Shown piece by piece: positions 30,077 to 30,561 of a DNA stretch of 36,346 nucleotides; within the stretch, counting starts at the first letter, position 1; each line of letters starts with the position of its first letter. Position numbers and translations under genes: made by a program. The notes below the pieces were generated by a model. The model worked only from the letters and a program-made list of their open reading frames with translations. It ran no database searches and had not been told where the DNA came from. Origin of the DNA: a virus (taxonomy: Duplodnaviria > Heunggongvirae > Uroviricota > Caudoviricetes); IMG/VR virus record IMGVR_UViG_2529292882_000022, positions 1 to 36,346 of that record; one strand, 5' to 3'.

Positions 30077-30221
30077 CGTCAGTTTTTAAACTGCTACGCG
30101 CTCTTTCATCCAGCCGTAGACAAACGACTCGTTGGCCTCGCGTTTTTCTGCCAGCTCCAGATAGCGGTCGCCCTGCGTGCAATTCAGCGCCTTCAGCATC
30201 ACCAGTTCGCCGTCTTTGCCA
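30077..30221 (-). pseudogene. 3' remnant of an ORF truncated by the Mu-like insertion
   Basis: Minus-strand open frame (...GDRYLELAEKREANESFVYGWMKERVAV, stop at 30077-30079) runs without a start up to the Mu-like terminal TG at 30222 and is followed by a terminator; reading frame assignment is tentative. Confidence 0.4.
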
Positions 30222-30405
30222 CTGTATTGATTCACTTGAAGTACGAAAAAAAACCGGGAGGACATTGGATTATTCGGGATCTGATGGGATTAGATTTGGT
30301 GGGGCTTGCAAGCCTGTAGCGCAAATTTTAGTCGTTAATCAATGAAACGCGAAAGATAGTAAAAAATTGCTTTTGTTTCATTGAAAATACGAAAAACAAA
30401 AACAC
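30222..30405 (+). repeat. Mu attL: transposase-binding repeats L1, L2, L3
   Basis: Repeated CGAAA-containing motifs at ~30235-30250 (tgaagtacgaaaaaaaac), ~30339-30358 (aatgaaacgcgaaagatag) and ~30379-30400 (ttgaaaatacgaaaaacaaaaac), at spacings matching Mu L1/L2/L3. Confidence 0.8.
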
Positions 30406-30561
30406 TGCAAATCATTTCAATAACAGCTTCAAAAAACGTTCAAAACCGATAACAACCAGGCTGTAACCAAATGACTCATATCACAAATCAGCTCATGCCG
30501 TTTAGGTATGTTACATGTGTGATTATGTGAGGTGAAGTATGTTTTAGCTGGTTCATGGTTG

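Follow-up and report, generated by a model that had tools for sequence, protein, structure and literature searches.

The 36,346-nt stretch of phage DNA analyzed here (the window) passes, near position 30,220, from one kind of prophage sequence into sequence resembling the left end of phage Mu, and this raises the questions of exactly where the Mu-like element begins, what it has interrupted, and whether it is Mu, its relative D108, or a different member of the family. Very probably, a Mu-family (Muvirus) prophage in Escherichia coli B799 has its nucleotide 1 at position 30223 and was inserted by MuA-catalyzed transposition into the GH108 endolysin gene of a Rac-SA53-like prophage, at codon 138/139. 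This reading is carried by an exact boundary, end sites identical to those of Mu, c, ner, A, and B genes that are all intact, an interrupted target gene, and a second part of that gene, found in B799 in exactly the predicted form.

The boundary lies between positions 30222 and 30223, where ccgtctttgccac passes into TGTATTGATTCACTTGAAGTACGAAAAAAAACCGGGAGG. The T of TGTATTG is position 30223 (positions 30220-30229 read cactgtattg), and TGTATTGATTCACTTGAAGTACGAAAAAAAACC starts there. In a megablast search of 50,697 phage records, nucleotide 1 of Mu aligned with window position 30223 at 95.0% identity over 459 bp (E = 0); four Mu records aligned in this way (NC_000929.1, AF083977.1, M64097.1, and V01464.1). 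The end of the element, 5'-TG at 30223-30224, falls exactly where identity to the uninterrupted target of strain SC418 stops: the window equals the SC418 endolysin gene through 30222 (ending in GTCTTTGCCAC) and is unrelated to it from 30223, where SC418 goes on with GTTTTTGCAGATAAG. GC content drops from ~0.49 to 0.38 across the junction. Left of 30223, no Mu homology was found in either the megablast search of phage records or the comparison with SC418. Among 5,426 complete E. coli genomes, matching records took either the left half of the query, to 30222, or the right half, from ~30223; none spanned the left junction (0 of 437 records covered at least 80% of the query).

The first-pass annotation had placed the left terminus of Mu at 30222 and claimed single-base resolution for one end of a Mu-family element. 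The match to the Mu terminus held down to the first nucleotide, and so did the resolution, with Mu nucleotide 1 at 30223 and SC418 identity ending at 30222; the coordinate itself was off, as the element starts at 30223. The 5-bp flank, which had been given as 30217-30221, is GCCAC at 30218-30222 (plus strand), one base to the right, and consists of the last five host bases before Mu nucleotide 1. Two checks that had been put forward, alignment to Mu-family left ends and a search for Mu homology continuing leftward, gave the 95.0% alignment over 459 bp and the lack of homology left of 30223 described above. An abrupt change in gene content, strand, and terminator pattern had also been noted at the junction. 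Gene content and composition do change there, but strand does not: c, like the genes of the host prophage, is read from the minus strand, and the switch comes at the c/ner divergent region (~31078-31277).

The attL, from the 5'-TG terminus through three MuA-binding sites, occupies 30223..30395 (plus strand) and corresponds to Mu nucleotides 1-172 apart from an additional A and a single substitution. L1 (TGATTCACTTGAAGTACGAAAA, 30228..30249, plus strand) and L3 (TGTTTCATTGAAAATACGAAAA, 30374..30395, plus strand) each had 0 mismatches to the 22-nt sequence TGNTTCAYTNNAARYRCGAAAR, which we take to be the MuA consensus of the Mu literature. These were the only two matches to the 22-nt consensus in the window at three or fewer mismatches, and 0.25 were expected by chance. 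The weak site L2 (GTTAATCAATGAAACGCGAAAG, 30334..30355, plus strand) had one mismatch in its 17-nt core (30339-30355). The 17-nt MuA consensus YMYNWRAARYRCGAAAR, as written in the D108 GenBank record, matched the window five times at one mismatch or fewer (0.53 expected; 0 of 100 shuffles reached five), and three of these five matches, at 30233, 30339, and 30379, fell within 163 bp. All three sites lay on the plus strand in direct orientation and were letter for letter those of Mu in the alignment. The first-pass description of three CGAAA-type repeats at L1/L2/L3 spacing was thus confirmed by the consensus matches, with the sites at their Mu positions shifted by one A.

Over the first 200 bp, the element differed from Mu at two places: the A-run that follows L1 is one A longer, and one T is changed to C. 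When the first 237 bp were placed in a multiple alignment with Mu, D108, phage PhiR68_1, and the prophage of E. coli MIN10, L1 was the same in all four. The A-run after L1 (30244-30251) was 8 A long in the element and in MIN10, and 7 A long in Mu, D108, and PhiR68_1. Because of this one extra A, the L1-L2 spacer (30250..30333, plus strand) was 84 bp, against 83 bp in Mu; the 84-bp spacer is also present in the full-length MIN10 prophage, which has a target-site duplication (TSD). In Mu, the L1-L2 spacer is bound and bent by HU and includes the pac region. The spacer of the element aligned with that of Mu, and on this identity it would have the same function. The L end of Mu carries an HU site (PMC3820752). 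The left end of Mu, as an exact 30-nt sequence, was present in only one of 185,579 species-representative genomes, that of Shigella flexneri SFBU1023 (CP182556.1, L010 5838-5867).

The sequence left of the junction identified the target. Positions 30086..30222 (minus strand) encode the 3' remnant of a GH108 (glycoside hydrolase family 108) endolysin gene, comprising residues 139-181 and the stop codon and including the 5-bp target copy. Up to 30222 this remnant was 100% identical to the 3' part of WP_000836754.1, the intact 181-aa gene of SC418, and it contained a Pfam PG_binding_3 match (8.7e-12). In SC418, the endolysin gene follows two holin genes within a lambdoid prophage adjoining ompN and uspF. 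The Mu-like insertion divides the endolysin between residues 138 and 139 and leaves a chimeric 59-aa ORF over the left junction (30086-30265, minus strand), which is EIG41384.1 (ESTG_04974) of E. coli B799. Window positions 1-30222 form the late region of a lambdoid prophage that is Rac-SA53-like (95.7% identity to Escherichia phage Rac-SA53 over 85% of a 22-kb query) and contain tail fibre, baseplate, SLT transglycosylase, head, portal, and terminase genes, together with ParB_N and TAGT genes. The Mu-like element is therefore nested in another prophage. Its insertion should have inactivated the endolysin of the host prophage, and the lysis function of that prophage is probably disabled.

The chimeric 59-aa ORF occurred on only one contig, scaffold JH768576.1 (254,156 bp) of assembly GCA_000261385.1. 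The window end, 36346, is ~2 nt short of the end of this scaffold, within the Mu gam gene. Since the window stops at the scaffold end inside gam, the right end of the element is absent from it, and the visible part of the element is 6124 nt. The sequence of the right junction could nonetheless be predicted. The last base of the GCCAC copy is also the last base of endolysin codon 138, and the Mu right end in the MIN10 prophage reads TGAAGCGG on the bottom strand. With GCCAC duplicated and joined to TGAAGCGG, the other part of the endolysin gene would therefore encode a 138-aa product ending in QKRG, followed by a TGA stop. This 138-aa fragment was predicted before any look-up, and among ~15 billion proteins it was found on one contig only, as EIG43271.1 (ESTG_03895) on a 996-kb contig of E. 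coli B799.

The first-pass annotation had proposed that the five bases at the left end should recur immediately outside the right end, and at the protein level the N-terminal endolysin fragment of B799 was as this predicts. Codons overlapping GCCAC are therefore present at both junctions, with the reading frame stopping directly behind them. The evidence for a right junction and a 5-bp GCCAC duplication in B799 is strong but indirect. On the top strand, the expected B799 right junction would read CGCCGCTTCA, then GCCAC, then GTTTTTGCAGATAAG, and on the bottom strand CAGAAACGTGGC followed by TGAAGCGGCGCACGAAAAACGCGAAAGCG; the right end CGCCGCTTCA itself was seen in the sister prophages only. 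The predicted right junction CGCTTCAGCCACGTTTTTGCAG had no exact match in IMG/VR. Both ends of the element are apparently in place, because the other endolysin half stops exactly as the Mu right end would dictate. Possible causes of the scaffold break in gam are a gap, a rearrangement, or a second copy of a Mu-like element. The target consensus of Mu is 5'-CYSRG (PMC7350765), and the central CCA of GCCAC fits its Y-S-R core.

The visible genes follow the order of the Mu family, with c divergent from ner, then MuA (DDE) and MuB (AAA+). The c repressor gene (30562..31077, minus strand) encodes 171 aa and had a match to Pfam HTH_Tnp_Mu_1 (4.9e-23). The ner gene (31278..31496, plus strand; Pfam HTH_35, 2.4e-25) encodes 72 aa and was called as a 72-aa gene on the source contig. 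The intact MuA transposase gene (31499..33499, plus strand) encodes 666 aa with matches to the four Mu-specific Pfam domains, HTH_Tnp_Mu_1, HTH_Tnp_Mu_2, DDE_2 (2e-136), and Mu-transpos_C. From residue ~78 onward, the protein aligned as the MuA of Mu save for two substitutions, and the catalytic residues D272, D339, and E395 are kept, equivalent to D269, D336, and E392 of Mu. MuB, the AAA+ target-capture ATPase (33538..34476, plus strand; Pfam Phage-MuB_C, 6.5e-34, and AAA_22), is intact at 312 aa. Several small genes, including kil and homologues of gp6-gp9, occupy 34492-35961 (plus strand; Pfam Kil_protein and Phage_Mu_gp6 on the source contig), and gam, of which the scaffold end leaves only the 5' part, occupies 35981-36346 (plus strand; Pfam Phage_Mu_Gam on the source contig). 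The early region from 34492 to 36346 was 97.6% identical to Mu.

Between these Mu-like parts lies a cassette at 30682..31660 that has no nucleotide similarity to Mu and runs from c, most of which it includes, through the operator/enhancer region and ner to codon ~55 of A. In element coordinates, blastn aligned Mu only with positions 1-459 and 1439-6124, and no Mu nucleotide similarity was found over 460-1438. The c protein was 95.3% identical to the repressor of PhiR68_1, 45.9% identical to Mu c, and 39.5% identical to D108 c. MuA residues 1-77, domain I-alpha, differed from those of both Mu and D108. In Mu MuA, domain I-alpha is the enhancer/operator-binding domain, and in both Mu and D108 the repressor and transposase share such a binding domain. 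In the element, the N-terminal 60 residues of c were 65% identical to the N-terminus of its own MuA. The earlier label "Mu/D108-like" has to be divided: the attL is of the Mu type, and the immunity region is neither that of Mu nor that of D108 but is of the PhiR68_1 type. The cassette was carried by 15 of the 5426 complete E. coli genomes; its chromosomal position differed in each of the 15, and different genes were interrupted where these were listed.

The c-ner divergent control region (31078..31277) presumably holds the operators and the transposition enhancer, by analogy with Mu, in which these sites lie between c and ner (PMC5977238). A cluster of TGTATTCA motifs was found here at 31092-31203, with exact copies at 31103 (plus strand), 31173 (minus strand), and 31196 (plus strand), and copies with one mismatch at 31092 (minus strand) and 31124 (plus strand). 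Three of the six exact copies in the whole window fell in the c-ner region. These motifs are candidate operators or enhancer sites of this immunity type. The canonical IHF site WATCAANNNNTTR had no exact match in the whole window, and a sigma-70 promoter scan of the c-ner region gave nothing useful. On balance, we lean toward regarding the cassette at 30682-31660 as a third Muvirus immunity group, apparently uncharacterized functionally, that would be heteroimmune to Mu and D108 and would have its own operator/enhancer motif (candidate TGTATTCA) read by both repressor and transposase.

Comparison with individual relatives placed the element within the family. Mu (NC_000929.1) shares the terminal TG, the sequences and positions of L1, L2, and L3, and the order of MuB, kil, and gam, with nucleotide identities of 95% over nucleotides 1-459 and 97.6% from element position 1439 on. 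It differs in the divergent cassette of c (46%), operator/enhancer, ner, and MuA domain I-alpha (~77 aa). PhiR68_1 (PV340575.1, host E. coli C) shares both the immunity cassette and the attL, with 97.5% nucleotide identity over the first 4.76 kb; by megablast, window positions 30223-31600 were 97.5% identical to it throughout. It differs in a short divergent stretch at element positions ~4762-5004, and it was deposited as a phage genome, not as a prophage at the endolysin site. A literature search found nothing on the biology of PhiR68_1; one phage-panel paper names PhiR68.2. D108 (NC_013594.1) shares the logic of a Mu backbone with its own c, ner, and MuA N-terminus, and its transposase-binding sites are annotated at 11-27 and 156-172. 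It differs from the element at many positions, in the L1-L2 spacer and the surroundings of L2 and L3, and also in MuA domain I-alpha. D108 was rejected as the closest relative, the attL and c being nearer to Mu or PhiR68_1.

Also close were prophages of E. coli MIN10 (NZ_CP069677.1) and 2014C-3075 (NZ_CP027447.1), which were 99.4-100% identical to the element, including the 8-A run and the cassette. Both are full length in closed genomes: the MIN10 prophage is 36,711 bp and flanked by the TSD GCCGA/GCCGA, and the 2014C-3075 prophage is 37,097 bp and flanked by TTCAG/TTCAG. Taken together, their insertion sites are a DKNYY-family gene and an ABC-transporter substrate-binding-protein gene. The left end of a further sister prophage, in strain 2014-01-7375 (L009), was not found by exact-match search. 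The three flanks GCCAC, GCCGA, and TTCAG share the Y-S-R core of CYSRG. Because full-length sisters with TSDs occur at differing loci with Y-S-R flanks, the lineage behaves like a normal, recently mobile Mu-type phage.

Whether the element seen in the window is a whole prophage bears on a rival reading in which it is a defective or rearranged Mu-like remnant, consisting of a left arm only or carrying internal deletions. Only 6124 nt are visible, ~30 kb of interior is unseen, and the scaffold ends in gam, all as such a remnant would allow. Every visible gene is nevertheless full length, the MIN10 prophage, complete at 36.7 kb and bearing a TSD, aligned with the element at 99.4% over all 6124 nt without a gap, and the remaining half of the endolysin gene stops exactly where a Mu right end would place its stop codon. 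A remnant is accordingly unlikely, and the prophage is probably complete and active beyond the visible 6.1 kb. The draft state of the scaffold assembly, together with the end of the scaffold within the Mu part, might also be read as the mark of an assembly chimera, in which a Mu-like prophage read was joined to an unrelated prophage contig. Such a join would be arbitrary, but this one falls exactly at Mu nucleotide 1; the complementary endolysin half is present in the same assembly, cut at the codon predicted by the 5-bp duplication; and the flank GCCAC carries the Y-S-R core that Mu prefers in its targets. A chimera is therefore most improbable.

That the element is Mu itself or D108, for example a laboratory Mu brought into the strain, is scarcely credible at all. 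The near-identical attL would fit Mu proper, as would MuA from residue ~78 and the element from position 1439 (~97.6% to Mu). The c protein, however, is only 45.9% identical to that of Mu and 39.5% to that of D108, element positions 460-1438 lack Mu nucleotide similarity, and the best matches are PhiR68_1 (97.5%) and natural E. coli prophages (up to 100%). Identity with Mu or D108 was rejected on this comparison of immunity regions. The reading retained is a natural Mu-family prophage with a PhiR68_1-type cassette, inserted by transposition into the endolysin gene.

The transposition mechanism of Mu (PMC7350765, PMC3820752, PMC5977238) can be applied to this prophage, since it has the same cis sites as Mu and its MuA is the same in the parts that bind the ends and carry out catalysis. 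MuA binding and catalysis in the element, as judged from sequence, would then proceed as follows. Domains I-beta/gamma of MuA would bind L1, L2, and L3, with MuA also on the right-end sites, and HU would bend the L1-L2 spacer. The two ends would synapse with the c-ner enhancer to form the transpososome. MuA would nick after the terminal CA/TG, and the 3'-OH ends would attack target phosphates 5 bp apart, in a target delivered by MuB, giving the GCCAC duplication. In the lysogen, the third-type c repressor, with its matching MuA domain I-alpha, would shut off the early promoter.

Several features of the host prophage were recorded alongside. The late genes of the Rac-SA53-like prophage are all on the minus strand. 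A TAGT gene (TET-associated glycosyltransferase, Pfam 1.3e-35) next to a ParB_N-domain gene (27441-29157, minus strand) has the lysis cassette on one side and the small terminase on the other. The TAGT gene had no TET/JBP gene next to it, and the pair may be a DNA-modification module. The ORF at 23386-24825 (minus strand) had a Pfam Phage_portal_3 match, and its SC418 orthologue is called "anti-CBASS protein Acb1 family protein" by RefSeq; this naming is either an annotation oddity or a sign of fused function. Plus-strand genes lie amid or at the edge of the minus-strand late region, at 1-750 and 8514-9569. One of them carries the SC418 RefSeq name "Zygote formation protein zyg1" and had no Pfam match, and the remaining ones encode a hypothetical protein and an AntA-domain antirepressor. 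These genes look like moron or cargo genes.

The feature at 30223 is a Mu attL of the textbook kind, belonging to a natural prophage that is biologically ordinary and close to deposited sequences. Its value is mainly one of annotation, as it fixes one prophage boundary to the base and identifies ESTG_04974, a 59-aa "hypothetical protein," and ESTG_03895 (138 aa) as the two halves of one split endolysin gene. Two draft B799 scaffolds are thereby linked, because the break falls inside a prophage and the other endolysin half is on the 996-kb contig. What is known of Mu transposition is unchallenged by the element. Its cassette, being neither that of Mu nor that of D108, offers a modest lead for work on recognition among the Mu repressor, enhancer, and transposase. 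If it does represent a third immunity group, it would be a third natural case in which repressor, transposase N-terminus, and enhancer have co-evolved while the transposition machine is otherwise invariant.
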